A stretch of DNA of 59,595 bases, counting the filler, from Sphacelaria rigidula (taxonomy: Eukaryota), in the NCBI GenBank assembly GCA_964200075.2. It is 9 parts of 9 records of this genome, joined end to end, with 100 filler letters (N's around TTAATTAATTAA, not from the genome) between each part and the next. Parts side by side here need not be neighbours in the genome. Positions count along the whole stretch, not along the records: positions 53,064 to 59,595 come from CAXNAA020019514.1; 8 more parts are not named here. One strand, written 5' to 3'. This document shows positions 4,340-56,115 of this stretch, piece by piece. Under the pieces are notes generated by a model, which saw nothing but the letters and a program-made list of their open reading frames with translations, was not told where the DNA came from and made no database searches. The position numbers and the translations under genes are program-made. Each line of letters begins with the position of its first letter. Within the stretch, counting starts at the first letter, position 1.

Positions 4340-4377
4340 TGTACTCATGATCATGCATGCCATAGTCATAAGACCAT
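4340..4377 (-). mobile_element. 38-bp 3'-terminal fragment of the C-run-targeting LINE (subfamily B), with a perfect 16-bp TSD
   Basis: TGTCGCTGTGAATGGG at 4324-4339 and 4378-4393 flanks TGTACTCATGATCATGCATGCCATAGTCATAAGACCAT. Confidence 0.85.
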
Positions 4378-10623: not shown

Positions 10624-13272
10624 AGCAATCAATATCATGCTTTGACGTAGAGATAACAGTTGCTGGTCCCAGGCTCTGCTGTGGTCAAGACTGTGTGGTC
10701 ATTGCTACGACCAGGAAATATGGCATGAAACTAGTACGAAAGGTACCTATGTCGAAGAGAACGGCGCACGCGGTGTATCGAAATGGCATCCTATACTTAC
10801 GAAACAAGAACGGTATCATTCAGTACCATCTGAGAACATAGAAAGAAGAATTGGTAGGCAATGTGCAAGTATTGTCGATGAGATTTTACTGAGAAAACGG
10901 GGTCTGTTCTCTGCGGTGTATATAAACCTTGTTGTCCAGGATATCATTTCTATATACACGCGAGTACATGGCAGAGGCTTTCGTAGCAGCACAATACCAT
11001 ATACTATATCCTTACACTCATGCGTTGGGCCCATCTATCGTCAACGCAAACAGGATGCCGATCGGACGAGAAACATAGGGCGCGTTGGAATTGTACATGT
11101 ATATGGAAACACTCCCTGTATTTACGATAGAAGTGATACCGTAGCTCAAATTCATACGGCTATAACGCAACGTAACTGCAGTGGGTACCAGAGAAAATCC
11201 TTGTACGAAAACACATCTGCTCACATGCGGCATGACATCACCCCTCCATGTGTTCCCGAGATATTGCTTTCAATGAATAGTCCTTCAACTCGGATCTTTG
11301 TCCATTTTATCACCGGAGAAGAGCCACATCCCGAGGAGAGGCTCAGGTTACCGGGTTGCCTTTTCCCTTACTTCTCATCCGAGTCGATATCTACCCCTAC
11401 ACCTACAAGAAGAAACACGTAGTCTAGTTCTAGCCGCTTACCCCCGTGACATACGAGGCTACCACTCAATTGCATTGGGGTGATATCGTCATCTTTGCGT
11501 CGATGGTAGGACCTACAGTTCATCGGCACAGATTCGTTGGATCCGTTTGTGGTTGTGTGCGGCGTATCGCCAGCACGTCCATGGCCGCCATCGACAACTG
11601 TGATCAACACGGGACTACCGTGGATGAACACGGCAAGGATCCAGTCGGACAACAATAAATAGAGGAGGTCGAACTACGAGTCACGAACGCCTGCCGATCG
11701 CGGTCTTATAACCGCGATCACTCCCAGGAGATAGTCGCTGTTCTCGCCGTCGACCTTCCCCAGCAGCCGAAACAGCGCCAACAATCACCGCGGCCCAACT
11801 AGCTCCCATCACACATGACCGCCGCAGCAGCGACGCCGAGGTCCACACACCCTCACGTGACGCTGTTTTCAACCACACCTTCCCAAACCATCGAGAGCGA
11901 GCCATCATTCGGAGCTCTCTTCCCCCCCAAAGGGGTCTACGTTCGCATCACCTGTCCAGTCGCTCTCGCCGACTCCGGTAACCGCATAGTCTTCCTCCAC
12001 TGTTACGGCATCCTCCCATCACATGAAGTCGTTCCGCTTGTAGGCTGTATACTACCAGCCCTCCTGCGTTCACCTACGTCTCCAATCCCCGCGCCGTCGA
12101 AAACGTCCAAGGATCATTAGCGCGGAGAATTTTGGCGTGTCCCACAGTCATCGCCCGAAGCGATCACGCGGAAGAACTCCAATAATGTTGAAGGCATTTG
12201 CCCACGTCCGTATTGGATGCGTCAGTGTGGAGAGCTATCAGCGTCAACTGTCTCTGTATGGCTCTGTGATTTTTGCGTTACGTCATTGCGATACGAGATC
12301 ACCGAAAGGGGTTCGAAGTGTCGCCGGTCCAACGCTTCTTGAATCCATCGTGCAACGCCACTGAAGATCGTCAAGAGCGTATTGACGTACGGCTAGTTGG
12401 AGCATCCTGGGATCTATCGTGTGACATGCATCCATCTGTGAACGGGGCTAATAAAATTTTGGTGGAGCTGTACGCATATCATATTGTCACCCGGCTTTGT
12501 CGCTAGCTCGGTGCACAGAACCTCGTGTCGTCATTCGTCTCCGTCGTTTGTCCAGCGCATAGGAGTAGCCCAATTATGTCTTTCTCGAAGAATACGTGAA
12601 ACACAGACGAGATCCCACCACGAGTATTAGCACACTTCGTCCCCACTCTGTCCTCCACCATGTATGGAAACTTCCGTCTCCTCAAAAATCACTCAACACA
12701 GAACCATACCTGATCATCACCATCACCGGCTGATATTAATGTTTATGGTCATGGTATCCCAACGCCTCCATGCATTCGAATTAATGCGAGCAAAGCGTGG
12801 AAGCTGTCCTCATCACCGTCCGCACTTTTACGCCAGAAAATTCGAATATAATCTGGTTCGGAACGGCACACATGAACCTGGCCATTGGTATTGACGGCTC
12901 ATACTTCTATAAATAATAACTTCCTGGTGCATTTATTCTGTTCGTTTTTATTCATCCGCTCGTTCAACACGTATATCCAGAGCACACATGTTTGTTGGAT
13001 ACTTGTTGAACGTAATTTTCTGGGCATACTTCTCGCACCTACAAGATGTACGTTCACGCGCTATCTTATATTTGATGGAGTAGCCGGCGGAACACCATCA
13101 TACCTGGGGGGGGGGGGGGGGGGGCCCCTTTTTGTTTTTTGCTTAGGTGTCGCCCCCTTCACCACCNNNNNNNNNNNNNNNNNNNNNNNNNNNNNNNNNN
13201 NNNNNNNNNNTTAATTAATTAANNNNNNNNNNNNNNNNNNNNNNNNNNNNNNNNNNNNNNNNNNNNGGGGGG

Positions 13273-13316
13273 CGTACTCATTTGTTGCTTGCCTTAGTCG
13301 TTTGACCATTGACCAG
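13273..13316 (-). mobile_element. 3'-terminal fragment of the C-run-targeting LINE (subfamily A)
   Basis: (G)n-CGTACTCATTTGTTGCTTGCCTTAGTCGTTTGACCATTGACCA, the same end as the copies at 44148-44213 and 55175-55900. Confidence 0.8.
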
Positions 13317-13608
13317 GGCCGGGGGGGGGAGGGTATAAGCACGCGCCTGTACGCCGGTCGTTCACTTCAACAACCCTGGAGACTATTACCGAATACCCCT
13401 CCGAAGAAGAGGCTGAGCTCGAGTCGGATATCTCCGAGCAGGAGGACGAAGAATGACCCAACACAACGATCACCACGCCCACGATCGCAGCGGTACGCAA
13501 AGTGGCAAGCTAGCACACGGGCGAAACCCTAGCCATCCTACCGCGACGTACACGTGGAGGAGGGCTAAGCACGCTACCCAGTTCCGCGATGAAGGACACT
13601 TTCTATGT

Positions 13609-13935
13609 TAGCCCCCCCAAAAAAATAGCTTGCTCCGTCTCGAAAGGGATGCGTGGTCAATGGTCGAACTACCATGGCAAATAACAAATGAGTACGCCCC
13701 CAAAATCAGCCCAAACGTGTCACGAAAGAAAATGGTCATACAGCGCCCGATCTTTAGTTTTAGGCTGCATGAAGTGCCTCATATAGGCGACATTGACGAA
13801 AATCAACCCAAGCGTGGGAATTCCCAACTGCTCGTTGTGCTCGGCTTCTTTCATTTTGATTCACGTGTAGATTTTTCATCCCCAAACCAGCCACGTTTGT
13901 GGCGGACATGGAGACCAAAAGGGTGGGGGATGCTA
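13609..13935. mobile_element. Unclassified non-autonomous repeat inserted into the Copia element; homologous to 53150-53560
   Basis: It interrupts the Copia IN-RT linker. The shared blocks GACATTGACGAAAA..CCCAAGCGTG..TTCCCAACTGCTCG..GTAGATTTT..AACCAGCCAC recur at 53443-53540. Confidence 0.7.
13630..13696 (+). mobile_element. 3'-terminal fragment of the C-run-targeting LINE (subfamily A)
   Basis: TGCTCCGTCTCGAAAGGGATGCGTGGTCAATGG...AACAAATGAGTACG, flanked by an imperfect TSD CCCCCCCAAAAAAATAGC / CCCCCAAAATCAGC. Confidence 0.8.
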
Positions 13936-15603
13936 TGACCAAAGAAGCAGCAGCCATCGTCACACTACCAAACGCGCTACCAGAGGAACCAACAACACTG
14001 GGACAGGTACAAACATTCCCAGAATGGACCCAGTGGCGACGAGCCTCGCGACGTGAGATGGAGGGACAACTCTCTCGCGGGGTTTGGGAAACGGTAGACC
14101 GCCCCAAAGGCAAGACGGTTCTTGGCACGAGACTCGTCTTCAGGTCGAAGATCCACAAGGACGGGTAAAGCGAGAAGTACAAGTGCCGATTTGTCTCCCA
14201 AGGTTTTTGCCAGATACCCGGTATTCACTACCAGGAGTCCTCCTCTCCCATACCGGCGCAGTCCAGCATCCGGATGACGCTTGCGCTCATGGCAACACAA
14301 AAGTGGGAAGAACGCCAACTAGATGTAGACATGGCCACCTCGAGGCGAATATCGAGGAAGATATCTATATTGAACTACCCGACGGATACCGTCAGACCAA
14401 GAATCGAGTGGGACGACTCAACAAGGCTATTTACGGCCTGGTGCACGCTGGACTACTGTGGTCGAAGACGTTTGGCCAAGAAGTGCTCCGCAAGGGTTTC
14501 GAGAGATCGCAAGCCGGCCTCTACGTCTACCACAAGAAGCGAGAAGGCCGCGTGATAGTCATCATAGTCGTCTCCGTGGACGACCTTCTCCTGGTCAGCG
14601 CCACGAAGGAGGACGAAGAAAGAGCACTCGAAGATCTGCAATAGAGTTTCCCAATCAAGGACCTGGGGGAAATCTCATTCTACCTCGAGTGCCAAGTCTC
14701 TAGGGACGGCAAGGTTATAACGATGATTGTTGGCCAACGCCAGTACGCGAAGAAAGTGATCGAGCGCTCCAAGGTCGTCAAAACGAGCAAGATTCCGGTC
14801 GCTACTGGAGCAGCTGCACTCTCAAAGACAGACGGACCAGGAAACAAAGACGAGGTGAACGAAATGCGGGGTATCCCCTACCGAGAGGCGGTGGGAGCAC
14901 TGATGTGGATTGCCACCATGACAAGGCCCGATCTATCCTTCGCAGCACACAACGTCGCCAAGTTCAGCCATAACCCGGGACCGGCACCCTGGAAAGCCGG
15001 TATGAAGGTCATGCAGCACCTGAAGCGCACCACACACTGCGGGATCGTGTACGGAGGAACGTCCAGAAACGACTCCAAGCTTTCCGATTGAGTCAACGCA
15101 GACCATACGACCTGCCAGGATATCCGGCGCTCGGTGTCAGGAGCAGCGTTCATGCTGGTCGGAGGCGCCATCAGCTGGCTCTCCCGGGCACAGAAGCTCC
15201 CCGTTTCGGCTACGTCAGAGTCGGAGTACATCGTGCTCGCAGAAACAACCAACGAGCTGCGCTTCCTCAGACAAGCAAAATATTTCATGGCACCGCCCGC
15301 TGACACCAGGATCCCTCTTCACAAGGACAATCCCGGCGCTATGAGAATGGCAAACAACCAGTTCAGCAGTAGACGGAGAAGGCACATCGACATCAAACAC
15401 CACGTCGTTAGGGACGCCGTCGACAGCGGCATCACCCGTGCGGAACACGTGAACTCAGGAGAGCAACACGGGAACACCCTCACCAAAGCATTGCACGCGA
15501 AGACTTTAGAGAGACGTGCTCTTTTCTGACGAACGGTTCTTAGGATTCCGAAACTCCAGAGAGTATTTACTGGAGCGTGTCCGAATAGTTGAGGAGGCAG
15601 GGG

Positions 15604-15720: not shown

Positions 15721-18700
15721 CTAGCACGGGTTATTTTCCTAGCGAGCGGGTGATTAGCACGGGTGATTTCCTTAGCAGGCGGGTGATCAGCACGGCTGGT
15801 TTCCCTAGCGATTTTCTAGACGTCGAGCGATAGGAAGAGTGAGGCAGGCAAACCAGCCCCCCTTTGCTCACTTCCTTCCGACTTCCTTCCGACAGCTAAC
15901 CTACTGCTGTCCACTTGCCTGGTCGCGTGAACTTGTCGGTGGATGCTTTTCAGGAAGCTGGGGGGCAGGTGACCGAGGAGCGGGATGCGGCGGTGGAACG
16001 CTCAGTAGAGTGCGGCGTGGATATGTTCATGGACCCGCCGGAAGCGGAGGCCGCTCGGAAGGTCGCGCTGGATGAGAGCGTGACGGATGCTGTGGCGAAA
16101 GGCCTCAGACCCCCAAAGCGGCACGCCTGCGCGGCATCTTGCATCGCCGCGTCAACGCGTTTCGTCGTGCGCTGCGGGGTGATCCCCCTGCGCGCGTGGA
16201 GCCCATGCGTGTTAAGCTGAGACCTGGGGCATCCGCGGTGAAGGGGAAGCCGCGGCGGTACAATCCGGTGAAGTGGAGCTGGTTGACATCGTCTACGGCG
16301 GCTCTTTTGGTGCTTGAGTGGGTAGTCCGGAACCTGCAGGCAGTATGGTCCGGTCCGGGGATGGCAGTTCCCAAGAAAGACTCGTTTTACCTGGTGAGGG
16401 ACTACAAGGCCGTAAATGATTACGTTGAGAAGTCGCCGGGTGTGATTCCCAACCAAGAGTCGGAAATGCGTGATCTCTTGAGTGCTCGTTTTTTTGGCAA
16501 GTTGGACCTCCTCCAAGGTTATTATCAGATACCGTTGGCGGAGGAGGCGCAGGAAAGTTTCACAGTCACAACCCCGTTTAGGCTTGTTCACCTCGAAGCG
16601 AGTGTAGCAAGGCGTGTTGAACGCCATGGCATATTTTCAAGGTATCATGACAGAACTGCTTGTCGGCTTGAAATCCAAGATATGGGTAGATAATGATTTG
16701 TTTTTCGCGGACACGGAAGACGAACTTTTAGACACGCTTGATGCTATCTTGGCCCCCTTAGAGAATGTTGGTTTGTTTGCGGCGGCGCACAAATGCACTT
16801 TCTTCGCTAGTGAACTCGTATGGTGTAAGGAATGTACTCACACGGACGCGCATCTCATGACCCTGTCAGAATACACAGCTTGTCTGACATGCGGCGCCCG
16901 GAGATGGCCGCGGAACTCATGCAATTCCTGCAGGCCGTGAATTGACTGCGTACTTCGTTGCCGCGTATGGCAGAAACTGTAGCTCCCCTGCGGTTTTTCC
17001 TCGAATAACTCATGGGGGGTGCTGCGAGGCGGACGAAGCGTGTAGCACAAAACCGCGCTATTCCGCCTGCATCGTGGACGGAGGGCAGGTTGCAGGCGTG
17101 GGCGGCAGCAAAGGATCTGGTAGCTCACGCCGTTGCGCTGTTTCATCCTCGTCCTGATCGCTAGGTGCTAATGTTTCCGGATGCATCTGAGTGCCATTGG
17201 GTTAGTTTTGTTACGCAGGTGCCTAAAGCGGAAATGCAAAGACGCCTGCCGGTTGAGGACATGACGCATGAACCGCTGGCTTTCCTCAGTGGTGATTTTA
17301 AGAGTTCGCAGTTGCGTTGGGACACAAGTGATAAGGAAGGTTTTGCTATCGTAAGCACTTTTCGTCGTTTGGAGCATCTTTTGTGGGATGGTGTGCACAT
17401 TTTCACGAATCACCGAAATCTCGTGTATATTTTCAACCCGAAAGCGTGCGTTACTTCTGTGTCGAAAACATTGGCAAAGCGTTTGGAGAGTTGAAAAGCT
17501 GTTCTTGGCCAGTACCGTTACTCGGTTTGCCATATCTCGGGTGACCGTAACGCGTGGGGTGACTTGCTTTCGCGTTGGGTGAATATTCCGGCTTGCCTGT
17601 GCGCGCTGTGGCTGTGTATGGTCCGTGTGAACCTGATGACTCGATGCCATCCAAATCAGCTGTCCGACAAGCGCAACGAAAAGACCTTGGGGCCGAACAT
17701 GCGGATGTGCAATCTTTTGAGTCGGACGTTGATACTGCTATCTTGGACAATGAAGATCTGTTTCGTGTGCATGTGCGTGGCCGAAACGTTTTGTGGATTC
17801 CGAGTTCTGGCAAGGAGTTGCAGGTACGTCTGATCATTTGCGCGCACATGCGCGACGCCGGGCATCGTGGTGTGGCTGCGACGCTCGTGCGCTTGCAAGA
17901 GTTTTGTGTCTGGCAGGGGATAGAAACTCATGTGCGCGAATTCGTACGCCAGTGCCTTCACTGTGTTGGCTCGAGGGCGGGCGATCTTGTTCTCCGCCCG
18001 CTCGGCGAAACGGTCCATGGGACCACGCCGAATGAGGTCGTTCGTTTTGATTTCTTGTACGTGGGCCAGAGTGGCCCGCTAGCTTCCCAAGGTTTGTCGG
18101 AGGATGCTGGGTTTCGATACATTTTGGTAATCATGGATGATTTGAGTAACTTTGTGGCTTTGGAACCAGTAGCAGTGTGTACTGCTGAATCGACCGCTGC
18201 ATCTTTTCTGAATTGGTGCAGACCTTTGGGGGTGCCGCAGGTGTAGGTGAGTGATACCGCCACGCGTTTCAAGAATGCGATCTTGGCCCGATTGCGAGAG
18301 ACTTTGCGCGTTGATCACCAGTTTGCGGTAGCGTATTCTCCGTGCTCTAACGGTACGTGCAAGGAAGTAGTTCGTACTCTTTGCTCTATTCTTCTCGAGC
18401 AGCGTCGAGCGGTTTTCCGAGTGAGTGGACGTGTTGCCCGCGGTGCAATGGGTGCTCAATACAGCGCATCGTCGTCTTTACGATAGTATGCCCTACCCTG
18501 TGATGTTTGGTCATGCCCCTCGGACGTCTTTCTCGGTGTTGGAGTCTTCGTCGGCAGGGGAATGGAAGTGTGATGTACTGGACGACGTTCAAACTAAGAG
18601 TGCATTGCAAGGAGTCTTGGACTTGCAAGAACGTTCCACGTTTAAGTGCAGGAACGTGTTGCTGCTGAACGTGCGCGTAGACGTGAGGGGTCCTCGTCGG

Positions 18701-19507: not shown

Positions 19508-19763
19508 GCCCCCAAAAAGGTGATGTCGCTTGGGTTGCCGCATCTTGACTGATGATATAATCGCGTCTTGTCTGTGGCGGCGACCAATGCAAAGATCGGT
19601 CTCTTTCTGCCTCTTCTTTAGGACAGGATGTGGCTTTGTGCGCCACTCAACACTTCGTCGAAGGGCAGAGCGATGTTCCTGTCACCGCTACTCTTCTCAC
19701 ATAAACACACACGTGCGAGAAAGGACGGTTGCGCCAAGATCCAATCCCATGTCGGGGGGGGGG

Positions 19764-19799
19764 CGTACTCATTTGTTGCTTGCCTTAGTCGCTCGACCA
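19764..19799 (-). mobile_element. 3' end of the C-run-targeting LINE at a contig end
   Basis: G10-CGTACTCATTTGTTGCTTGCCTTAGTCGCTCGACCA. Confidence 0.8.
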
Positions 19800-20430: not shown

Positions 20431-21092
20431 CCAGTCTGTATTTCATCCCCTTGCTGATTCGCCGTCAGTGGCCACCAACTATCTCCTATAATAGTATGGC
20501 GGTCGTTTTCTCGCTACCGTCTAATGTATAAAACGATTTCATGCCACCTCCGTTTAGTTTCCACATTTCCCTCTCCATCACGTGCCGTTTCTCCCTGTTT
20601 ACTGTACCTGATTTTTGTCAAACCACAACGCTATCCCTCACCCAAATCCCAACCTGAAGGAAACCGAGAAATCTCGAGCAAGGTAGGTACACAAGGTGCT
20701 CTAGGTGAAGTGTGATCCGCGTTGACTCAAATCGACGCCATTGAAACCGACCTGAGCCAAATCGCGTGCTGCGCACGCGTGCTCACCCTGGGCAAGTCTG
20801 GGACTGTGAGCCAAGCCCTGTGAAGATTCGAATATGATGGTCTAGACTATATCCGAGTATATCTTCAATCAGTTCTTATTTCGCCGAACTCGGGTAAACT
20901 CTACTGCCTTGAGAGTAAACTTTGCTGATATGATGTGGCTTCAGGGAAGATCACTCAGTGCCTCGTTGAAGAAACTTGCAGTGAGCAGAAACATGATGAA
21001 GGAGGTTGTTAGTTCGCAGTACTAGTGCTCGCTGCACAACAGATGACAACAACGCTGACCGAGGTGGGAAGGGGGCAACAGGGGCGACTCAC

Positions 21093-26364: not shown

Positions 26365-26432
26365 GATAGGGATGAAAGCATATTTGCAAGGCCCAATGGA
26401 CGCTGCGAAAAATATGAAATTGCGATTTCGGG
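26365..26432 (+). mobile_element. 5'-truncation junction of the C-run-targeting LINE, running into the contig end
   Basis: C10 is followed directly by IGMKAYLQGPMDAAKNMKLRFR, homologous to TYLHGAMD..KLKL*FR in the 55175-55900 copy. Confidence 0.75.
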
Positions 26433-26734
26433 NNNNNNNNNNNNNNNNNNNNNNNNNNNNNNNNNNNNNNNNNNNNTTAATTAATTAANNNNNNNNNNNN
26501 NNNNNNNNNNNNNNNNNNNNNNNNNNNNNNNNGGTTCGTTCTAGCCAATGTCGTCAATATGAGGCGCTCCATGCAGCCTGAACCCAAACATTAGGCGCTG
26601 TATGGCTATGTTTTTCGTGACATTTTGAGCTGGTTTTGATGTGGGGCTATCGTAGAAAGTGTCGCCAAATGCGGGATGTACTGCTGGCCCAGCTCGTACG
26701 AAACAGAACGAGCATTTTCAGGTGAGTGCTGCAT

Positions 26735-27245
26735 GGTTATCCGCCTGCTCGCGTTGAGCCCTTGAAGGTGAAATTCAAACCTATTGCTGTGGAGGCGAAG
26801 GCTTGGCCAAGGGGATACTTTCCGGTTCGGATGGCGTGGCGGCACGCTGCATCGCAATATTTGGTGGCGCTCGGGCTCGTATACTGTAGCTTGCAGGTAG
26901 TGCGGGCGAGAGCGGCGATTGCAACGCCCGAGAAGTTTTGTTTACGCTGGATGAGTGCGTACAAGGCGGGGGAGGAAGTTCCTCGTCCCCACAAGGAGGT
27001 GGTGCATGGTGCTCGCCCAGGGAAGGTGTTTCATTTCAATTTTCTCAGTGTTGGCAAGGGTGGTCCGCTGGGAGATAATAACTTGGGAAAAGGAGATCCG
27101 TTCAAATACAAATTAGTGAGGATGGATGACCCGAGTGACTTCGTACGGTTGGAGCCCGCGGACTCTTGTACAGCGGCGGCGACGATGAAGCATCTGTTGT
27201 CTGTGTATTGGTCCGCTTGTGCTTTCAGCGGTTTGGTTGTCAAAT
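26735..27245 (+). mobile_element. Internally deleted Gypsy relic: RT N-terminus fused in frame to the integrase core
   Basis: PPARVEPLKVK..SAYKA joins GEEVPRP..VHG..FHFNFL..MDDPSDFVRLEP..CTAA. Both halves are homologous to 16180-16410 and 17980-18200. Confidence 0.8.
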
Positions 27246-27471
27246 GAGCATCGGTGGGGTACCCTCCAACTCCCCCCTTCATACGGCACTAGAGTGGTAC
27301 GGAAATGGTCTACAAATAAAACCGCGGAGTCACGGTAGGTCAAGTCTCCCGTCCAATCCACGGACCGCCTTTTATACACTATAGTGTCCGCGTCTTTGGA
27401 TCCCAAAAGCTTGGCTAGATGGGAAAGCCTGTCGTGCTATTGATTTCTAGTGTTTGAGTATCGCGGACCAA

Positions 27472-34608: not shown

Positions 34609-34874
34609 GCTCGCGCCCTTGCGCACGTGGAAGGACGTCACTCGGACTAGAACGATCGTGTCTGGAATTTGCGTGGTGCGATGCGCGAAAGAATTGTCAT
34701 CGTCAATCTATGGTCCTTACTTTCTTTCCGCCCTTCTTCTGCTTGTATGCCGTTCTTGCTTTTCTTCATTGAGGGCGTCTGTCTCTTCTGTCCCTTTTCC
34801 ATTCCATTCCAATGTAAGAAAGGATATAGGAAAATTGGAAGTGCGATGCGAAGCAGAGCAATCTATTGGATATC

Positions 34875-37780
34875 GATTTGATTGATTTGATTTGATTGAT
34901 TGTCGCACTTTACCTGACCACCCATGGGTCCAGCCGTGGTCGCATGATGGACTTACCCAAGAAAAGCAAAACTGAACTCGCCCAAGAGAAGAGGGAACAG
35001 AAAAAAGTCGAACATAACGACCTAGTAGACTGAGACGTGTAACAAAATAAGGAGGGAAAATGAGCAAAAGCGAATCACGAAAAGATATGGCCGACCCAAA
35101 AAACGAAAAAGGAGCTAAAAATAAATAAATGGAATAAAATAATTGAAAAGAAAAAAGCCCGAGCGATTCAGGGCAGCAGAGAAGGTATAAACACACACAA
35201 GTGGCCACCGCAGAGCCACCGACTAAGGACAGGATTCTCCGATTGGCGACCCTCGACGCAGCAGCCTCTCGCTCGTGACGGCGGTCTGATTCTCGTTTGT
35301 CCGCGCGTCGCCACGTGTCGTCAAACTCTTCCGCTCCTTTTTCGACTCCGATATGCCATTTGCTCATGTTATTCGCCGCAGTGACCCAATCGTATGCATC
35401 GTTAACCTCTACACCGTAGACTAACCACTTCCGTCGGGCTCCTTCGTGTCGGACAGCCCCTAGTGCACCTAGGTTCTCCTTTAGGGTATCCTCCTATTGC
35501 TTGGGGAGGCGGCCGGCCTCCTTGGGTCCTCGTGTGGAAAGCTGACTGTTCATGACGCGTTTAGGCAGGCGTGTGTCCTTCTGCCGGACAAGGGCTGCCG
35601 CGAACCAGAGCTGGCGTTTTCGGATAGTCGTCTCGATACGTTCGCAGTGGGTCATGTCGAGTACCGCTCTGTACCAAAGAGTCTTGTAGCCATTTCGATC
35701 TTTCCTGCGGAATCCAACCACTCGCAGTAAGAGCTTGTGATGGGCAGTCCGCAGACTGTCGAAGTCCTCAGAATGTAGCGTCCATGTGGCACATGCATAC
35801 AGCAGAGCTTTTACCACCTCCGCTTTAAGCTGTCGAACTTTCAAGGATAGCTCGGCGTTGGGTCGGTCGTAGAGTTGGGAGCTACATTTTCGGATACGCG
35901 CCCACGCCGAGTTGATACGACGGTTGATTTCGATGGACATTTTCGCATCCGCGCTGATAGCTCCAAGGTAGATGAACTTTCCCGTCTGCTTATACCGTTG
36001 ACCGGCAGCTTTAATATCCAGGGCGGCCTCCTTGGGACTGGGTACTGACCAAAGGCGCACGGGCTCTTTGTTGCTCTCGGAGACCATCAGGCCGAATTCC
36101 TGGCAGGTCATCACTCGACCATCATTCGAGCAAGGCCTTCTGGGGTCTTCGAGGCTATGCCGGCGTCATCCGCATAAAGCATTGCCCGCACCGCGCGTCG
36201 CACCTTCTCCAGCGGTGTCTCTTCCACGGGCTCACCACCGCCACCTTTTGGCGCATCATCTAGAAAGACCAAGTCTGAGACGATGACTGGGTCCGCCGCA
36301 AACCGCTGGATGATCACTTCGACCAATCCTACTCCGAAGATGTTGAACAACAGCGGAGACGAAACGCAACCTTGTCTGAATCCCTGGCAGGCGTGGAACC
36401 ACGCTGATAGGTCGCCACTATCTAGCTGTACCCGAGCTCGCATGTCGTCGTGAAACATACGGATGATCGTGATCATTCGCGACAGGACTCCGAACCGAGC
36501 AAGCACTTCCCACAGGAGCGTGCGGTCTACAGAATCGTAGGCTTTCTGCAGATCGACAAAGCACATGTCCATTGGGACGTTGCTCGCCCGTCCCAACTCC
36601 TGGAGTCGGCGTACTACGAGCATCGCCGTTGAACGTACGCGAAGTGTTTCCCTTGGGGATGGAAAAAAACGTGTGGACCAGGGCAAGCCTGTTGCCGCCT
36701 GCAAATTGCACTAGAGATGTGCCGCTACTGTCGTTGGATCGGGAGTCTGGGCCGTATGCTCCTACAATTTTACGTTCCTCCTCGCCTGCTCGTACTTCAG
36801 TCCTCGCGTTAGCGTTTACTAAAATAAACAGGTGATGTTTGTGGGGGGTACGGTTCACAACGCCGTCTAACTCAGTCCAGAACACATCTCTCTCTTATCT
36901 TCACTGTGGTGTGTCTGTCGAGGCGTATGCAACCACAAACGTAGCATTTGATTTACCCGCTAGGTTGAAAGTCATCGACATGAGGCGTTCGCTGATGAGT
37001 GCTTGAGTCCACGTCGCCTTGCTGATGATGGTCTCTTTGACCACCAACCCAACCCCCTGTTGACCAGGCCTTCCCTTACCTCCCTCTGCCCAGCAGCAAA
37101 AAACACAAAATTCGGATCGACCTGGTCTCCTCGTTTTCTGTAGACCGATGACGTCACATCCGACGGCCTGAAATTTTTGCAGGACCACCTCAGCATGATC
37201 AGGTCTGTTCTTTCCTGTGAGGAACAGTGTACGGACGTTATAGGTAGCCACTTTGAGCTCCCCACTACGCGACCTAGCTTTAGCTTTATTTATATCCACG
37301 CGTCTTTCTCTTTGCTGTGCTCTCCTTCTTGGTCTGTTCCGCCTCCCAATTTTACGGGCGAGCTCTTTTTCCTGTTCTGATTTTCTTTGGCACATCATCA
37401 CGGTACCTGCCTTGCTTGTTGACCTTGCGGGGAGGGTGCAGCCTTCCCATCCGGCGTCGGCCGCTATCTCCAGTCCGCCGAACCTGATACTTACTCACAC
37501 GTGCCTCATCTTCATCAACGTGCTTTCCATGACAGTGTCTCAACCCCGGGTAAAATGCTGCTGCTGCGGGGTTCAATTTAGTTCTCACTCTAGGGTAGAA
37601 CTCCGAAGCTGCAGGGTTGAGCCTGGACGTTAGCACCGTCGACATGACCCACTACCTAGACTGTGTGTTGCATTACCAATTTCACGACAAGCAGGCAAGC
37701 CAGTAGGTCAATTTACCCTTCATTACTCACTGGTTGTTTTGTCAACGGGGTTAGCCTACCCCGACACAACCAACCCCAGA
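34875..37780 (-). mobile_element. RTE-clade LINE: N-terminal 2x PAM2, basic region, APE endonuclease, RT, 3' UTR stem-loop and (ATCA)n tail; internally deleted and pseudogenised
   Basis: LKVATYNVRTL, DVIGLQKTR, GVGL (APE); FVDLQKAYDSVDR, QGCVSSPLLFN, MLYADDA, FIYLG, LLYACATW, RLPKRVM (RTE RT). Start ATG at 37645. Confidence 0.92.
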
Positions 37781-40523: not shown

Positions 40524-43500
40524 GCAACAGCAACAACAACACACGACACACAACGACAACGATACAGGTGGTGAACAGAAAGAAAACAGTGAAGACGAAA
40601 AAGACAACACAAGAGAGAAAAAAAATCCGATCGGAATACACACGAAGTTTCATCACGGGAAAAGAAAAAAAACGGAGACCACCCCCAAACTTCGGTGACA
40701 AACCCACAGTGAATGGAGCACTACTTCTATGCACTGATTGTAGAGGCAAGATAAATTGGCACAGTCGACAGCGCGAACTGCAGGCACCGACCACCGGATT
40801 CCCCCCCAAACCGTACAATACAACGCAACACTCTGCACCTCCTGATCATTTTCCAGGACAGGCAATCAGCTCACCTGTTGGTCGTTACACTCTCTGCCGC
40901 CGGAGCCTCGGCAGATTCTTTCTCCACCGTCTCTCGGTCCTCGTAAGGGTCATCCTGGCCCACGATTCCTCTAGCCACCACGTTGCCAAGTTCGTCCGTC
41001 CGGATCCACTCCATAATTTCCTGCCGACGTCCGTGCGTGAATGAGAGAAACATCAGATCATCCGTCGAGTACCTTAGTCAGTTTTCCCGTGCATACAAAC
41101 AATAATACAGCGTGCGTCTATTTATTGACCAACGAAAAAAAAGATCGCCGCTGGAGAACAACCCCCCCCCCTCTCGGTTTTCCTGTATACTTTGCCGAGG
41201 CTCATCGCGAGAGAGCGTAACGATCGAGTCCTGTTTTCCTCTTTTTTTTTCTTATTCGTGTGTACATGTGCAAAGGCCAACGGTCCTCCGTTCTCCCCAG
41301 ATATACATGCTTCTGTTTGGGGTATAGATATTCTTCAGTAGCGGTGGTTTTGACAGAGGGTTTCGGTGGGCTCAACCCCCCCCCACTGCCTTGAGGACTA
41401 TGGCAAGCATGATCATGAGTACACCCCCCCACTGCCTTGAGCAAAGCTTTTCGAACGCCCGAGTAGCCTCCCCCCACATGACTGCCGTCAGGCGGCCTAG
41501 CCGAGCCTTGGGGTAATCGACACACGTATCCACTCGCGGGGTAAGTATTGGGTCAGGTTTTTTCCTCCCTTCAAAAAAGGAAAAAAAAAAGGGCAGTGGG
41601 GAAATTGTATGCTACTCATCGCAATTTTTAGCTGAGACCAAGCAATTTAGTTTACCGTTTTTTTTTCTTGTCTTCGCGGATGTGGTGGCTGAGAGTTCCT
41701 GCCCAGTAGTGTGATCTCTAAACACATCAGTCGCAACGTATTTCCTCGGCCTTGCTTCTTGTAGGGCCTCTTATGTGAAGCCCTGGTACGGCCCTATCTA
41801 CGCTAGTCCCGAGATGGTTTCCGGTCCTCAGGCTGGGGTCTCATGTCCGACCTGACTATTCTCGGTGTTTCTCTTCCTTTCTATTTTTTCCCTCTCTGCT
41901 CCCTTTTTTCGCTCGAGTTTTCTTGAAGCGAAGCGCATCCGTTTGTTTCATTGTTTACCTTGTGACCAACCACGACTGGGTGCTGGGATTACGTACGAGC
42001 GGAATCGGGTTGATTACGACACGATCTATCAACCTAACCGATCGACTAACTAACTAACCAACCAACCAACCGACGAAAAAAAACACACACACACACACAC
42101 ACCCTGGATAATGACAAACAGATTGCATTGAAAAAAACTGAGCTGCGTGCAGTGTATAATCTGTTGTCCGCAATAGTCGATACTGTGCGTAGGACACTTT
42201 TTTACAAATGCAATCCACTACCCAGGGTGTGAAAAAAAAATGGAACCACAACCACCGCCCGCCCTCCCGCCCGCCCACCTTCCGCTTCGCTTTGGTCGCC
42301 TTTTTTTTCGGACGCTTGGTGTACGTGTGCACGGGCTGCAGGCTCGGCGAATCTCGCCTGAACGTCTCGTCAAACCTTCATCCATGAAGTCAACGACAAC
42401 AACAACAAAAACAACAACACCGAAGGACAACGAGGGGCATTGGGTGAGAGGACGAGATGGAGGGCCGGGGGTGAGCGGGGTTGGGTGGGTGCGCGGGGAA
42501 GAGACGGGAACGAATTCATGACAGCGCATGTATGACGTACCATGTGTTACAGTGTATACGATCCCCCGGGGCTGATATTTGGGTGGGGGTGGTAAACCAC
42601 GTACGCTGGGACAGCACCGTGAGTACCGGTATGTGTTATAAATGGGGGGGGGGGGGGGTAGCGGTGAGGTCACATACGAGGGACGGGGCTCGGGCAGACC
42701 AAGGTTTTTACCCCCAGGGGAGGGGGTTCATCAATTNNNNNNNNNNGTGGGTTGTGGGGGGGGGGGGGGGAGATGTGGGGGCGGTGGGGTGGGGGGGGTT
42801 GGGGTTTATGGTGGGGGGGGGGGGGGGGGGGGGGGGGGTTAGCGGTGAGGTCACATACGAGGTACGGGTCTCGTGCAGACCAAGTTTTTCACCGCCAGGG
42901 AAGGGGGTTCATCAATTGAATCGGCGCGAATTCTTTATCGAATATGAGCTCAAGCCCCAGATGACGACCCACTCTACCGCTCCAAGGGATGTTAACCTGC
43001 TCTACCGTGGTGCCTTCATTTCTTGTAGCATTTGCATATGAAAATCCTTCGTATATGTCTATATATAGGCTGCTTGTATGTACTAAAGACACACGATACC
43101 AGACCTTCTTCGTCGGCCCAGAATGCTCTGTTTACAACTGCCCAGAATGGCGGTACTTCGGGGAAACTAACTTTTGTCCTCATTTAAGCGGGTGCGTGGG
43201 CCAGGCAACGTTTTTGACAGCAGCAGCCGGCGGCGATCATGCCAGGATTCACCTGCTCGGCAATATGATGGCGCAGGTCAAGTACAAACAGCTCAACATC
43301 CGTAAGTTGAATATCACCCCCCCTCAACAACAATCGCCTGGAGGTCAAGTCTGGACTGTTTCCTGGTGCCACAGTAGTGTTTGCAGTACTGCACAGGCGT
43401 ACGCTGTTTACCACTCCTGCTATTGGCAGCCCACGTGATGGGTTGTCAAACCCCCAACACTTGGAAAGCCCATCATCAACGGGTTTCGCTCTTTATAAAA

Positions 43501-44063: not shown

Positions 44064-45184
44064 AGACGAGACGCTGGGTGACAAGATAACACGCAATGAA
44101 AAAAAACAAATAACCCCCAGCCCAGAGACCANNNNNNNNNNCGAACATGCTCCGTCTCGAAAGGGATGCGTGGTCAATGGTCAAATGACTAAGGCAAGCA
44201 ACAAATGAGTACGCCCCCCGAACAATGGGCGAGAAACGGCGAATCCAGCCCTGTTGAAAACGTCAAACTACGCGCGTCAGGGGTAAGGGAATCTGAATTT
44301 CCGCGGAAGGGGGTGTTATCGGGGGTAAGTGAGTGAGATGGCCGTACACTTGAACCAAGATAGACCCAAATCGCTCTTTCACTTGCTATTTGAAGGGGGC
44401 GATCTGCCAGTTACGGAGGAGTCGGGCACAGTTTGCACATTTTTGCCATGTACGTCCAAGATCGCATTTGCGCCTCAGCTCATGTGCGAATGGTTGATGA
44501 CAGTCCCCAGTGCAACTTCAACTCAATGAGAGCGATAACGGAGAACCCCTCGCGATCTCTTGTCCTGTATTTTCCGAAAGACATCCTCAGTGGTTCACCA
44601 CAGGCAAACTATGGTCACTGGCCACCGGTTCTGGAGTCAACATCACTCATCATCTCTTTTGCACCGCCGGATGCCACCGCGGTGCCAGTATATATTTTCC
44701 TGAGACCGCTGTACTACTGTATGCAAACTGTCACCTACACTTTACTTTATGCATACAGCACAGGCAGTGCTGTAGTGTTCAAACTGCACGTTGTTCAAAA
44801 ATATTAACATCCTACTGTATGAAGGCGTATGAAGACAGTACAGACAGTCCAATCAGTCTGTACTAAATGGTATTGAACTTTTTTTTTTCAACTTATTCAT
44901 GAACTGAATGAAGACAGTACAGACAGTCCGTACCGTCCGTACTGCGCGTTGTTCAAACATGTTTCAACACCTTTCAGTATGCAGACAGTACAGACGGTCG
45001 TCTGCACTCTCTGTACTGCAACTTGTTCAAACCACTTTTTAGTATTGCACATGTTCGCACATATCCTGCAGGACTGCCAGAGGAAGAATTGCGCCGAAAT
45101 GAGGCCCAGCGATCACAGGGTTAAGCGCTCCAAACACGGTCGTATCAACGCCTGCCTTGCTAAGGCAAAGTGCTGTTCTCGCAC

Positions 45185-46161: not shown

Positions 46162-46507
46162 CTGTCAGGAATGGGCATTGCGGTGTGATGCAATGCCAAG
46201 TCCATGCACGTGACGTAACGAAATGTATCCGAAGAAAAGGGAGAGGGGGGGGGGGGGGGGGGAGGCTGTTTTTTTTCTTGCTTTTGGTGTTTGACCGGGC
46301 GGGAAGGACACCCGTCTGAACCCCAGCCACGNNNNNNNNNNNNNNNNNNNNNNNNNNNNNNNNNNNNNNNNNNNNTTAATTAATTAANNNNNNNNNNNNN
46401 NNNNNNNNNNNNNNNNNNNNNNNNNNNNNNNTAATAATGATAATAATGGTGATGACAATCATAGAACTACGCAGTGTTATTCCTTTTCCATACTTCGGAG
46501 ACATTTA

Positions 46508-49447
46508 TGAATGATTGATTGGTTGATTGTCGCACTTCAACTGACCTCCCAGGGGTCCAGCTGTGGTCTCATGATAGACGTACCCAAGAAAAACGAAACT
46601 GAAACATGCTCTAAGGAATAACAAAAAAAAAGGAACAGGAAAAACAAAAAAAGAGGGGACGAACAGAACAACATAGCAGACTAAGTCGTGACAAAAAAAA
46701 AGTAATAAAAAGTCAACACAAGCAAGGCACAGACAGAAATGGCCGACCTAAAACAAGAAAAAGGAAAAGAAGAGGAAAGTACAAAGCAAATAAAATATAA
46801 TACAACGAAACGATGGAAAAAAAAAAGAAGAAGGAAAAGGCCGAAGGGATTCAGGGCAGCAGAGTAGATACAGACGCACACCAGTGAGTATCGCAGAGCC
46901 ACCGACTAAGGGCATAATCAACAACCGATATGAGAGGACAGGGGTTTCCGATTGGCAGCCCTCGACGCAGCAGCCTCTCGCTTGTGACGGCGATCTGATT
47001 CTCGCTTGTCCGCGCGTCGCCACGTGTCCTCAAACTATTCCGCTCCTTTTTCGACTTCAATATGCCATTTGCCCAGGTCCTTCGCCGCAGTGACCCAATC
47101 GTATGCATCGTTAACCTCTACACCATACGAACCACTTTCGTCGGGCTCCTTTGTGCGGAACAGCCCCTAGCGCACGTAGGTTCTCCTTTAGGGTATCCTC
47201 CCATTGCTTGGCGGGGCGGCCGACCTCCTTGGGTCCTCGTGTGGAAAGCCGACCGTTTATGACACGCTTGGGAAGGCGTGTGTCTTTCTGCCGGACAAGG
47301 GCTCCCGCGAAGCAGAGTTGACGTTTGCGGATAGTCGTCTCGATACGTTCACAGTTGGTCATCTCGAGCACCGCTCTGTAAGCAAGAATCTTGTAGCCAT
47401 TTCGATCGTTCCTGCGGAATCCAACCACTCGCAGCAAGAGCTTGTGATGGGCAGTGCGCAGACTGCCGAAGTCCTCGGGACGTAGCGTCCATGTGGCACA
47501 CCCATACAACAGAGCTTCCACCACCTCCGCTTTAAGTAGTCGAACTTTCAAGGATATCTCGGCGTTGGGTCGGTCGTAAAGTTGGGAGCTATATTTTCGG
47601 ATACGCGCCCACGCCGCGCTGATACGGCGGTTGATTTCGATGGACATTTTCGAATCCGCGCTGATAGCTCCAAGGTAGATGAACTTCCTCGTCTGCTTAT
47701 ACCGTTGACCAGCAGCTTTGATATCCAGGGTGGCCTCCGTGGGACTGGGTATTGACCGAAGGCGCATGGACTCTGTCTTGGTCTCGGAGACCTTCAGGCC
47801 GAATTCCTGGCAGGTCGGCACTATCACGGCCATCATTCGAGCAAGGCCTCCTGAGGTCTTTGAGGCTACGCCGGCGTCGTCCGCATAAAGCATTGCCCAC
47901 ACCGCGCGTCGCACCTTTTCCAGTGGTGTCTCTTCCACGGGTTCACCACCGACACCTTGTGGCGCATCATCTAGAAAGACCAAGTCTGAGACGATGAGTG
48001 GGTCCGCCGCAAACCGCTGGACGATCACTTCCGCCAAGCCTGCTCCGAACATGTTGAACAGCACCGGAGACGAAACGCAACCTTGTTTGAGTCCCTGGCA
48101 GACGTCGAACCACGCTGATAGTTCGCCACTATCTACCTGTACTCGAGCTCGCATGCGTCGTGAAACATGCGGATGATCGTGATCATTCGCGACGGGACTC
48201 CGAACCGAGCAAGCACTTCCCACAGAAGCGTGCGGTCTACAAAATCGTAGGCTTTCTGCAGATCGATGAAGCACATGTTTATTGGGATGTTGCTCACCCG
48301 TCGCAACTCCTGGAGTCGGCGTACTACAAACAGCATGTCTATGGTCGATCTTCGGCGCCTGAATCCACACTGCTCTTCCGGGAGGACATTTGTTTCCTCA
48401 CAAAAATCACCGAGCCTGTTGGCTACGACTTTGCGGAGAACTTTAGCAGTATGCGCCACAAGTGAAATGCCCCTGTATTGTAGTTACTACACTGGGTCCT
48501 ATCTTGTTTTTTGTGTAGCACTTTGATGGTGACATCTTTCCATTCCTGCGGCACTTCGCCAGATGTCCAAACCGCAGAGACGATGTCGTGGAAGTGGTAC
48601 AAAATGTTCGACGCCTCCCCGATGAGTCCAAGCTTCAGGATTTCAGCAGGAATACCATCCGGACCGGTTGCTTTGCCGTTCGACATGGCTCTCAGAGCCT
48701 CCACAGTTTCACTCGGGCTTGGTGGGTCTCCTAGTGGCAACGCTTTTGGTCGTTGAGTAATCTCCTCGATGATGGTGCGGTCGATACTTGCCGATACGGC
48801 GTTCAGCAATGTGGAAAAGTACCGTTCCTATCTCCCACTGATCAAACCACTGTCCCGCAGTAAATTGCCGTCCTCATCTCGTTTGTACTGTTCACTCTCG
48901 ATTGGTCGCCCAGACAATCTCCACCCTCCGTTGAGATGTCTGTACCATCCTCTCATGTCCCCCGCTCGTGTATGCTCCTCCAGTTCTCTAGCATACAAAT
49001 CCATATATTTGTCAACCCTAACTTGGATCACCTTTTTGATCTTTTTGCATGCTGTTCGCAATGTGCGCCATGCGCCTTTATGTCGAGATGACCCCAGTCT
49101 CACCGTTGATCTCGCTCCTTCTATCTCCATCCAAGCGAGTTCGAATTCCGTTCTGATTTCAGCATCCTCGAACCACCCCGGTATACGTGGCTTTCGGGTC
49201 AGACGGAGTACCACCTTCTCAGCGGCACTCAAGGGTACGTCGGCAAAGTTCGTAGCCAGTGAACTAACTGTATCACCAGGTATTCTCTGTTCGAGCTCGC
49301 TGATGATGAGCTGGGTGAGCTGCTCACGTCTGACGGGGTCAGATACTATTGCCCGTCTGTCGATCGGTGTACGCCCGGTTGGGATTCGTCCAGGTCTGAT
49401 GTGTGCGAAGCGACCAAGGAGCCGCACTGAGGCGCACACGATGATTT
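46508..49447 (-). mobile_element. RTE-clade LINE, 5'-truncated, with RT domain and (ATCA)n tail; frameshifted
   Basis: GKATGPDGIPAE, VPQEWKD, LPEEQCGFR, FIDLQKAYD, QGCVSSP, MLYADDAG, LLYGCATW. Closely similar to the 34875-37780 copy. Confidence 0.95.
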
Positions 49448-49663
49448 GCAACGCTCGTTGCAAATCGCCCCGGGGACAAAAAACGCATTGACAACATCAT
49501 CACACGGCAAGATCACCGTAGGCTCGTTCGCGATGTCACCGTCCACCTTCAACCCCCCAACTCGCCGGACTCTGACCACAACATCGTGTGCGCCTCAGTG
49601 CGGCTCCTTGGTCGCTTAGCACACAACAGACCTAGACCAATCCCAACTGGGCGTACACCAATC
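49448..49663 (+). mobile_element. Inverted piece of the same LINE (APE endonuclease C-terminus)
   Basis: The plus strand encodes KKRIDNIITRQDHRRLVRDVTVH..DSDHNIVCASVRLLGR. Its last ~80 bp are the reverse complement of 49363-49443. Confidence 0.8.
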
Positions 49664-54548: not shown

Positions 54549-54587
54549 TGTACTCATGATCTTGCATGCCGTAGTCACATGACCATT
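54549..54587 (-). mobile_element. 3' fragment of the C-run-targeting LINE (subfamily B)
   Basis: TGTACTCATGATCTTGCATGCCGTAGTCACATGACCATT between G-rich flanks. Confidence 0.75.
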
Positions 54588-54782: not shown

Positions 54783-55174
54783 GGTTGGAAAGGTGTTGGT
54801 GAAGAAGGTGGCCTCGTTGCCTTACATGATACTTGTGCGCGAAATCAACATGTGGTTTGATGACGTGCGATTTGATGCCTGCGAACCTTGTGGTGCAAGA
54901 TCTCTATGTACAAAACAGTACACTGAAGTACAGTTCGGTACAGGGACAATAAAATGACGCATTTTACAGTGCAACGTAGATTTATATATATATATATATT
55001 GCAGCACAGTAGAATATACTGTTTCCACATACATACGCTTAGAACTTCAACGCCATTTCTAGGAACAGCCTGCGTCTGAGAGACTTGACCCCGATCCGGC
55101 AAACTCGACGCTGAACTTGAAGCCGCAACAACGCTTACTGTATAGTCTGAACATGGGGGATGGCGGGGGGGGGG

Positions 55175-55900
55175 CGTACTCATTTGTTGCTCACGAAAGT
55201 CGTTTGACAATTGCCCACGCATTCCTTGCGAGGCGGACCACCGTTCCTACTCCTACAAGACACACTTCCAACATTCCGGCGCTCATTACGTTCCTTCCAT
55301 ACATTACACAAGAACCTTTTACATATCTTATCCCCGTCTTGTTCCGCGGTCTGTGGCTACCCTCTGTCTCCTAGTGTAGCGATCGTTTTTTCGCTACTGT
55401 TTAATCCGTCGAACGAATTCATGCCGCCTGCTTACGTCCCACATTTCCCCCTCTGACAAGCTCCGTTCCTGTGAACTGCCACTATGTTAGTTCAGCTCTC
55501 GATTGCTTCGCCACAGGGGCAATCCTGTGCATCTGCTTCCTCCTCTACTCAACTGCTAGTATGTTTCTACTTTTCTGGCAGGTCCAGGTCCCCCATCCGA
55601 AATCACAGTTTCAATTTTTTCGCAGTCCATTGCGCCGTGCAGATATGTTTTTCACTCCCGTCCTATCTCCCAACCCCCTATATGACTTCAGGTGCTCTGT
55701 CTCGTCTACTTTCCGCCCTAGTGTTCATTTTCCTATTGTTTCTATCATGTCTCTTACTTTTTTCTTGTACCCCCTGCATTCACCTGTGGACAAAATCTCG
55801 TCTTATTTTCTCCCATGTTCTTCCATTATTTCTCGACTACGCTATCTCACCTCATTCCAGCCTGCCCTTTCATTATTTTCTTCGGTACAGACCTATCAAC
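55175..55900 (-). mobile_element. 726-bp 5'-truncated copy of the C-run-targeting RTEX-like LINE (C-terminal region with a Cys knuckle relic)
   Basis: Degenerate frame EHLKSYRGL..TYLHGAMD..KLKL*FRMGDLDLPE..QDCPCGEAIES*TNIV..SSEKTIATLGDR..FLCNVWKERNER..SNK*, then GTACG-C10. The flanks TATAGTCTGAACATGGGGGATGGCGGG / TATGGCTAAAAATGGGGAAAGGGGGG resemble a decayed TSD. Confidence 0.8.
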
Positions 55901-56115
55901 TATGGCTAAAAATGGGGAAAGGGGGGGATGATAAATTACGCCCCTCTAGACGCTACGTTGAGTTTCTGGGATGGTGGTACGTCATGGAGTGGTATGCAAC
56001 CTACATGTCACATGTACTGTACAGTACGGGGCTGTTGTACGAGTCCCGCCACTGTACTGTTGCATTCCCGACCAACCTGCGTTGGTGTGGGCTGCCATAT
56101 TTTCCAAGCTCGTAG

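Follow-up and report, generated by a model that had tools for sequence, protein, structure and literature searches.

Copies of a C-run-adjoining LINE in the window

The stretch of DNA analysed here (59,595 bases, referred to below as the window) is made up of nine pieces of 6532–6533 bp each, which are joined by spacers of the form N44-TTAATTAATTAA-N44 and contain a few scaffold gaps of N8–N10. Copia- and gypsy-like open reading frames (ORFs) and two different families of long interspersed nuclear elements (LINEs) occur in it, and its source is therefore a repeat-rich eukaryote. The present work concerns one of these two families, a retrotransposon lacking long terminal repeats (non-LTR) whose copies end directly at runs of C. 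As the window consists of separate pieces and not of a single locus, the copies of this LINE sit in unrelated stretches.

An earlier examination based upon the sequence alone (the sequence-only reading) had described one 3' end that recurs in unrelated contigs in the form of two subfamilies, A and B. Both ends were searched for in the window, with up to three mismatches allowed. The subfamily A end (...CAACAAATGAGTACG) was found at positions 13273(-), 13677(+), 19764(-), 44194(+), and 55175(-), which are five matches as compared to 0.01 expected by chance, and the subfamily B end (...GATCATGAGTACA) at 4340(-), 41403(+), and 54549(-), three matches where 0.00 are expected. All of the sites listed earlier were recovered in this manner, and the motif search of the window detected no 3' end of either subfamily beyond these eight. 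The copies, together with two internal fragments of the family and the flanks of the longest copy, where a target site duplication (TSD) is seen, are listed below; "upstream" and "downstream" refer to the element strand.

4340..4377 (-): subfamily B copy, 38 bp; perfect 16-bp TSD CCCATTCACAGCGACA; C4 upstream, C3 downstream
13273..13315 (-): subfamily A copy, 43–49 bp; C9GGCCC (element strand) just upstream; six flank bases visible at the 3' side (+ strand GGGGGG), then the piece start
13631..13696 (+): subfamily A copy, 66 bp; C7 and then A-rich sequence upstream, C5AAAA downstream; imperfect TSD
19764..19799 (-): subfamily A copy, at least 36 bp, cut by the piece end; + strand G10 (19754–19763) adjoins the 3' end
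20439..20600 (-): internal family fragment, residues 1263–1313 of the intact relative P0153 (see below), without a 3' end
26365..26432 (+): internal family fragment, P0153 residues 1195–1216, cut by the piece end; C10 (26355–26364) adjoins the 5' junction
41396..41423 (+): subfamily B copy, 28 bp; perfect 18-bp TSD CCCCCCCACTGCCTTGAG; C9 upstream, C7 downstream
44148..44213 (+): subfamily A copy, at least 66 bp; an N10 gap cuts the 5' side; C6 downstream; CGAACA on either side
54549..54586 (-): subfamily B copy, about 38 bp, possibly slightly longer; C20 upstream, interrupted C-rich stretch downstream
55141..55174 (-): 3' flank of the longest copy; G10 on the + strand (C10 on the element strand), then the 3' copy of an imperfect TSD
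55175..55900 (-): longest copy, subfamily A; the C-terminal 726 bp of the LINE ORF in a decayed state, end ...AACAAATGAGTACG
55901..55927 (-): upstream imperfect TSD of the longest copy, with C7 first on the element strand

The lengths of the eight copies are 28, about 38, about 38, 43–49, 66, at least 36, at least 66, and 726 bp. The earlier statement that every copy is truncated at a different point is in accordance with this range of 28–726 bp, but it may fail for the two subfamily B copies of about 38 bp, whose 5' starts may nearly coincide. The longest copy, 55175–55900(-), keeps a single frame over 250 codons that contain 15 premature stops. In a tblastn search with P0153, it was matched at 55183–55936 by residues 1103–1360 (E = 1.2e-42), and searches of this kind with the intact relative also revealed the internal fragments at 26366–26431(+) and 20439–20596(-). 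The first of these accounts for the 5' junction at 26365 that had been noted to follow C10 directly. The stops of the old copy (55180–55929(-)) comprise 7 TAG, 6 TGA, and 2 TAA codons, with zero frameshifts over the 250 codons, and its decay has proceeded mostly via point substitutions.

In comparison to subfamily A, subfamily B carries one additional base within its last 20 nt, which puts the stop codon of subfamily A out of frame there. The frame of the subfamily B copies (4340, 41403, and 54549), none of which exceeds 38 bp, would continue into the flanking C-run, and this subfamily may represent either a separate lineage or a non-autonomous partner.

A shared end of this kind could also be internal to a longer element, or it could be the terminal repeat of a DNA transposon. 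Nothing was found in favor of this explanation, which is hardly credible in view of three observations: the flanks beyond the C-run differ at every copy, TSDs bracket copies of only 28 and 38 bp, and the end lies at the stop codon of an ORF for an apurinic/apyrimidinic endonuclease-like (APE) domain and a reverse transcriptase (RT). The treatment of this end as a true element terminus in the sequence-only reading was thus borne out.

The encoded protein and its brown-algal relatives

The longest copy had been regarded as the extreme C-terminus of a non-LTR RT ORF carrying the relic of a Cys/His knuckle. A Pfam scan of its read-through translation yielded nothing, and a phmmer search with the same translation against 1.84 billion representative sequences gave 502 matches with E ≤ 1e-3 (117 of them with E ≤ 1e-10), mostly ORF fragments of 70–230 amino acids (aa). 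When the best 150 of these 502 matches were examined by a strict motif search, nine were seen to stop exactly at ...KASNK (the motif was too strict for 128), and in all 13 read-through ORFs among these 150 the codons past the stop position are Pro-rich and C-rich (e.g., RVRPPPP and CVPPPPPP). An initial search for longer proteins was without result; a profile constructed from the fragments then led to full proteins, and the intact ORFs of 1360–1382 aa contain both APE and RT domains. In P0153 (1360 aa), the APE endonuclease (EN) lies at residues 170–414 (PF03372, E = 3.4e-12; PF14529, E = 3.3e-07) and the RT at residues 740–989 (PF00078, E = 9.8e-31), and no RNase H family was detected in it by Pfam at E ≤ 1. 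Its C-terminal region reads LKLRFRVGDLDLPERR...CPCGKA.ESRTHIVGEC, which corresponds to the pattern CX1CX8HX4C, and its terminus is ...VVNGQMTKASNK. Both the assignment to a non-LTR RT ORF and the knuckle relic are hence confirmed by intact copies. The first 170 residues of P0153 (in contig L009, about 3680–4189(-)) form a conserved N-terminal domain without a Pfam match, which appears RRM-like by eye.

Six copies of the LINE from outside the window were available for comparison; they lie on two metagenome contigs and on four further contigs, which belong to two records that are filed as bacterial genome bins. Two of the contigs, L001 and L009, contain an open frame of 1127 codons and an intact frame of 1382 codons, respectively. 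Both frames end in AAC AAA TGA GTACG, followed by C10 in L001 and by C13 in L009, so that the L009 terminus reads KASNK-TGA-GTACG-C13. Subfamily A has, as had been proposed, a 3' untranslated region (UTR) of 5 nt and no poly(A), and as its stop codon is 5 nt away from the terminus, the 3' recognition sequence of this subfamily is itself coding. No A-run was seen at any of the 14 3' ends (eight in the window and six external).

The presence of an APE-like endonuclease and an RT within one ORF is characteristic of APE-type non-LTR elements, and a single EN-RT ORF without RNase H and with a minimal 3' UTR agrees with the description of the RTE-X group, as the sequence-only reading had expected. 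In a search with the RT region, the closest proteins with a named source were three from Ectocarpus sp. CCAP 1310/34, each annotated as "unnamed protein product", which show 66, 52, and 51% identity over this region. The Ectocarpus proteins contain the same CX1CX8HX4C motif and end in ...VVNGLTAK(A), the form ...VVNG..T.K being common to them and to our LINE. According to a 2025 paper on the transposable elements (TEs) of Ectocarpus, RTE-X is the most abundant LINE group there, with seven families and 16,418 copies, and its non-autonomous partners have the 3' end in common (PMC12477816). In a supplement table of this work, RTEX-1_Ec32 is described as "single EN-RT ORF; (C)n 3'" with a "C-rich" TSD and a best blastp match to RTEX-4_NV, RTEX-2_Ec32 as having "(C)n termini/TSD", and RTEX-N1, which together with RTEX-N2 is a non-autonomous partner of these two, as an element that "can be present in tandem" (PMC12477816). 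RTE-X is thus the class that the curators used for (C)n-tailed, single-ORF LINEs, based upon best blastp matches to RTEX-4_NV and RTEX-1_BF (PMC12477816).

The LINE described here would correspond to what these curators call RTE-X, an assignment that is derived from homology and matching hallmarks and not from a phylogenetic tree, and we infer that protein P0156 is a copy of RTEX_Ec32. RTEX-1/2_Ec32 and our LINE have in common a single EN-RT ORF, a "(C)n 3'" end, "C-rich" TSDs and the highest LINE abundance in their own genome, with the likeness being drawn from the descriptions in the annotation table and not from consensus sequences. The (C)n 3' ends and C-rich TSDs of brown-algal RTE-X elements are therefore already on record, if only in an annotation table without a mechanistic study. 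In the available portion of the main text, the term "C-rich" does not occur and no mechanism is discussed (PMC12477816). The literature that we searched contained no treatment of site choice by brown-algal C-run LINEs; searches on non-LTR elements with poly C or poly G brought up nothing relevant among the papers listed, a further one on C-rich TSDs led only to a paper on the RTE signature, and a preprint on brown-algal genomics contained no text on LINEs or homopolymers. We file the LINE as a putative new, very high-copy member of a brown-algal RTE-X-like group.

In contrast to RTE elements proper, which carry (CAA)n-type 3' repeats as in Ectocarpus, our LINE ends in a C-run; the Ectocarpus RTE families are described by "(CAA)n 3'" (PMC12477816 supplement table). 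The other, unrelated LINE of the window, at 34717–37494(-) and about 46500–49496(-), shows a weak APE match and an RT-like ORF, and its 3' ends consist of CAAT/CAAAT-type repeats (about 34875–34904 and 46506–46527). This second LINE fits RTE better than the C-run LINE does and, given the (CAA)n RTE elements of Ectocarpus, the two LINE repertoires run parallel.

Placement in the L1 clade was also considered and rejected, since no poly(A) or A-rich end is present at the 14 3' ends and there is one ORF in place of ORF1 and ORF2. A comparison of the RT with solved structures does not tell L1 ORF2p (E = 6.6e-21) apart from R2 (E = 8.8e-20); because the similarity to L1 ORF2p is no better than that to R2, the LINE is not a member of the L1 clade. 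The EN domain alone gave only chance-level matches to solved structures, and the ESM Atlas yielded generic EN-RT clusters without taxa. In a public gene model, P0109 (598 aa), the last 69 or so residues of the LINE ORF are fused to what by eye resembles an ORC1/CDC6-type AAA protein; an inserted copy has probably led to a mis-annotation here.

C-runs at the 3' junctions and in the target sites

On the element strand, the 3' ends in the window are followed, in the order in which the subfamily A and then the subfamily B sites are given above, by C6 (cut by the piece end), C5, C10, C6, C10, C3, and C7, and by the interrupted CTCCGCCCTCCCC at 54549. C is the next base after all eight ends, CCC follows seven of them (p = 5.6e-12) and CCCCC six (p = 1.5e-13), where the binomial probabilities are based upon rates of 0.018 for CCC and 0.0042 for CCCCC in the window. 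The earlier claim that every copy is followed by a C-run, with an interruption only in the copy at 54549, agrees with these counts.

The junctions of the external copies are of the same kind. The element end ...GAGTACG is followed by C10 in L001 and by C13 in L004/L009, whereas L002 reads ...GACTACG and then C11 G C5, and L003/L006 read ...GAGTAC, without the G, and then C9 T C9. L007 and L008 are old copies with C-rich sequence after the 3' end. A C-run or C-rich 3' junction is hence present in 6/6 external copies. The LINE contigs L003/L006 and L004/L005/L009, one of them with the intact ORF of 1382 codons, are filed under bacterial metagenome-assembled genomes; as contigs containing a eukaryotic LINE, they are probably misbinned algal contigs.

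The searched stretch was found in eight public sequencing runs, and other sources were labelled as algae or protist metagenomes; a pattern scan of viral_contigs gave no matches. Four runs from two studies were matched, as contigs, to the 594-bp stretch 13267–13860, on which 60627, 39888, 24254, and 2551 contigs were placed, overwhelmingly on its two element parts. The summed word depth on this stretch is about 1e7 in the element as against about 1e3 in the flank, which is not a copy number but only a sign of very high multiplicity. The consensus of the loose ends located before the 3' end of the minus-strand copy shows a G-run of about 13–20 nt in 4/4 runs (agreement 0.40–0.47), and that starting inside the plus-strand copy (place 13669) reads ...GAGTAC and then CCCC in three runs (agreement 0.66–0.68). 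These placements and consensus sequences show that the family is present in extreme abundance and that the junction with a C-run is a general one. Tens of thousands of contigs match its 3' end, a much higher multiplicity than the 16,418 RTE-X copies given for Ectocarpus (PMC12477816).

As G/C runs are found at the ends of several pieces and N gaps, one may ask whether these runs are artefacts of sequencing or assembly, such as two-color poly-G calls, whose association with the LINE is spurious. However, the run is always C on the sense strand of the element, whichever strand carries the copy; the runs lie inside contigs between unique sequence, as well as inside TSD pairs; and they recur in the four sequencing runs of two studies and in four independent public contigs. 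An artefactual origin is thus extremely improbable.

TSDs that start with the C-run had also been proposed, and they were found as follows. The duplication 4324–4339/4378–4393 is perfect over 16/16 bases, and that at 41378–41395/41424–41441 over 18/18. Around the copy with flanks at 13612 and 13697, there is a perfect core of 9 bp (CCCCCAAAA) with imperfect bases after it, while at 44142/44214 only 6 bp are visible beyond the N gap. In the longest copy (55141/55901) 21 of 28 columns match, and the TSD of the copy at 54549 is a weak match. Four pairs of upstream and downstream C-runs are measurable. In the three young pairs the upstream run exceeds the downstream one (C4 vs C3, C9 vs C7, and C7 vs C5), whereas in the old copy they measure C7 and C10, respectively. 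The first base of the duplicated segment lies one or two bases within the C-run of the target. As the upstream TSD copies start with C-runs, the C-run was present in the target before the insertion.

This observation bears upon the possibility that the element makes or carries the C-run as a tail, i.e., an oligo(C) counterpart of poly(A), and that its targets are otherwise random. The presence of a C-run at each 3' junction seen would be accounted for in this way, and the L006 copy, which has C9TC9 downstream and no upstream C-run, would also fit. Nevertheless, the upstream copies of both perfect and imperfect TSDs open with C-runs that are as long or longer, and a run that predates the insertion makes such a tail very unlikely.

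Proposed integration at G/C runs

The variable length of the copies (28–726 bp), combined with TSDs of 16 and 18 bp that are perfect and imperfect ones of up to 28 columns, is characteristic of target-primed reverse transcription (TPRT), of which the lack of terminal repeats is another mark. Based upon all of these results, the copies are quite probably the 5'-truncated progeny of an autonomous, single-ORF, APE-type non-LTR element of the RTE-X type that integrates via TPRT at G/C homopolymer runs. The idea of G/C targeting, raised from the sequence alone, also gains support from the RTE-X entries of Ectocarpus with their "(C)n 3'" ends and "C-rich" TSDs (PMC12477816).

During such an integration, the bottom strand would be nicked inside or at the edge of a G-run. 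Because the target contains the run and the TSD starts within it, the primer would be the exposed bottom-strand ...GGG-3'OH, from which cDNA synthesis would set out at the terminal bases of the RNA of the element (...AUGAGUAC and then G or A). A second nick about 10–28 bp away would follow, and hence the TSD would open with the C-run. The choice of site may result from a preference of the endonuclease for G-runs, together with pairing, in which a few C's at the end of the RNA would anneal to the G-run that serves as primer, and these C's may come by read-through from the run flanking the donor copy (C10–C13). A pairing system of this kind would be self-renewing, since each new copy again has a target after it, and each insertion would duplicate a run and so add to the G/C tracts of the genome.

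A comparable rule has been described for the RTE clade. According to Nishiyama and Ohshima (2018), the first TSD base of RTE-clade LINEs and of short interspersed nuclear elements (SINEs) correlates with the microsatellite-like 3' tail, a correlation which the authors read as an influence of the RNA tail on the nick site or on the use of the primer (PMC6007223). The signature reported there for RTE is a TSD with T as its first base, which lies some 10 nt downstream of a stretch of T (PMC6007223). RTE elements (PMC6007223) and our LINE both have a very short 3' UTR, lack poly(A), and are of the stringent type, whereas the "microsatellite" is here a mononucleotide C-run and a Cys/His motif follows the RT. 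Targeting of C-runs would then follow the tail/TSD rule of RTE as its mononucleotide case (PMC6007223).

It has to be considered, however, whether targeting depends upon the endonuclease only, i.e., whether G-runs are recognised and nicked by the APE and the RT then begins precisely at the end of an RNA without C's and without any pairing. This simpler scheme is consistent with the downstream run being one or two C's shorter than the upstream run in three of the four measurable pairs, and with the sharp end of the element (...GAGTAC and then G or A). On the other hand, the copies with an intact ORF precede C10 and C13, and read-through transcripts from them would carry C's; a tail/TSD correlation is reported for RTE-type elements (PMC6007223); and the Ectocarpus curators take (C)n as the 3' terminus of the element (PMC12477816). 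We consider targeting by the endonuclease alone to be rather unlikely. Our preferred reading comprises both components, endonuclease preference and primer pairing.

Several observations speak against integration by TPRT at G/C runs in the form outlined above. The downstream runs are shorter than the upstream ones in the three young pairs, which argues against a long templated C-tail, and the terminal base before the C-run varies (G, A, or none). At the L006 copy, alone among the external copies, neither a TSD nor a C-run upstream could be recognised. In the RNA, the last 106 nt do not fold with unusual stability (z = -0.55), and the membership in RTE-X is based upon the annotation in the Ectocarpus paper and homology to Ectocarpus proteins. 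The idea of a conserved 3' stem-loop was dropped on the basis of this fold.

Mammalian L1 nicks its target at 5'-TTTT/AA and has a poly(A) tail. Like our LINE, it employs TPRT with an APE endonuclease and is frequently 5' truncated; both produce TSDs of 10–20 bp, with the first homopolymer the same as the end of the element, and in both the 3' end of the primer is complementary to that of the RNA. The differences are that the homopolymer of the present LINE is G/C and not T/A, that there is no polyadenylation, and that it has one ORF with a 3' UTR of 5 nt. This LINE thus provides a natural second case, beside the T/A system of L1, in which the target homopolymer matches the 3' end of the element, and it makes the contributions of endonuclease specificity and primer-template pairing to TPRT testable in another base context. 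A stronger proposal is that the RTE-X machinery is a true G/C mirror of L1, with a G-run-preferring endonuclease and an RT primed via read-through C's on the G-run, where each insertion recreates a target and the element is the main generator of long poly-G/C tracts. We advance this only tentatively, its chances being somewhat less than even. If it is true, then the LINE, in its tens of thousands of copies or even more, would be the main source of the long poly-G/C tracts, which break up assemblies of short reads and could have effects on replication or chromatin.

LINEs that enter microsatellites include Dong at (TAA)n, Waldo at ACAY repeats, Mino at (AC)n, and Kibi at (TC)n, which are members of the R4 and R1 groups with strict site specificity. 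In common with our LINE, they enter simple repeats that are matched by the ends of the element; the target of the present LINE is, in contrast, any G/C run, scattered genome-wide.

G/C tracts and other repeats that adjoin C-runs

In the 58.8 kb of the window, 14 G/C runs of at least 12 bases are present as compared to one A/T run of this length, and the longest of them are C42 at 45187 and C39 at 44025. The N gaps at 42737, 44132, 45291, and 54700, as well as piece ends, adjoin G/C runs, as if assemblies break there. The LINE offers a concrete explanation for this excess of long G/C homopolymers, and the same runs sit at the assembly breaks. Of the 44 runs of at least 7 bases in the window, about one-fourth adjoin copies of the C-run LINE family, and other, unrelated repeat ends in the window also adjoin C-runs. 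The excess of tracts is compatible with the LINE, its relatives or its dependants duplicating runs at insertion, but it does not show that the LINE made them. For the annotation of TEs in brown-alga-like genomes, tail-less LINE or SINE ends that adjoin C-runs should be expected, as should LINE contigs that have been sorted wrongly into bacterial bins.

A further repeat end (...GTATGTGACCTCACCGCTA) is present in two copies, at 42644–42719(-) and 42813–42917(-), which adjoin C15 and C26, with the C-rich stretch of these repeat ends (42644–42917) being interrupted by an N10 gap; this repeat end may belong to another retroposon family with the same kind of site. At 210–221(+) and 2431–2439(-), C12 and C9, respectively, lie between the conserved segments ...CGTGCAA..AATA and ..TCGTAGGATGACTCG, and a similar ATCGTAGGATG motif is found at 3390–3420 in L001, after the C10 behind the intact LINE. 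These segments and the L001 motif could reflect a tandem arrangement or a repeat that starts directly after the run. Lastly, the ORFs at 14057–15529(+), 16076–18246(+), and 26726–27247(+) resemble by eye a copia-type polymerase and a gypsy-type RT/integrase, and they appear to be ordinary remains of LTR retrotransposons.

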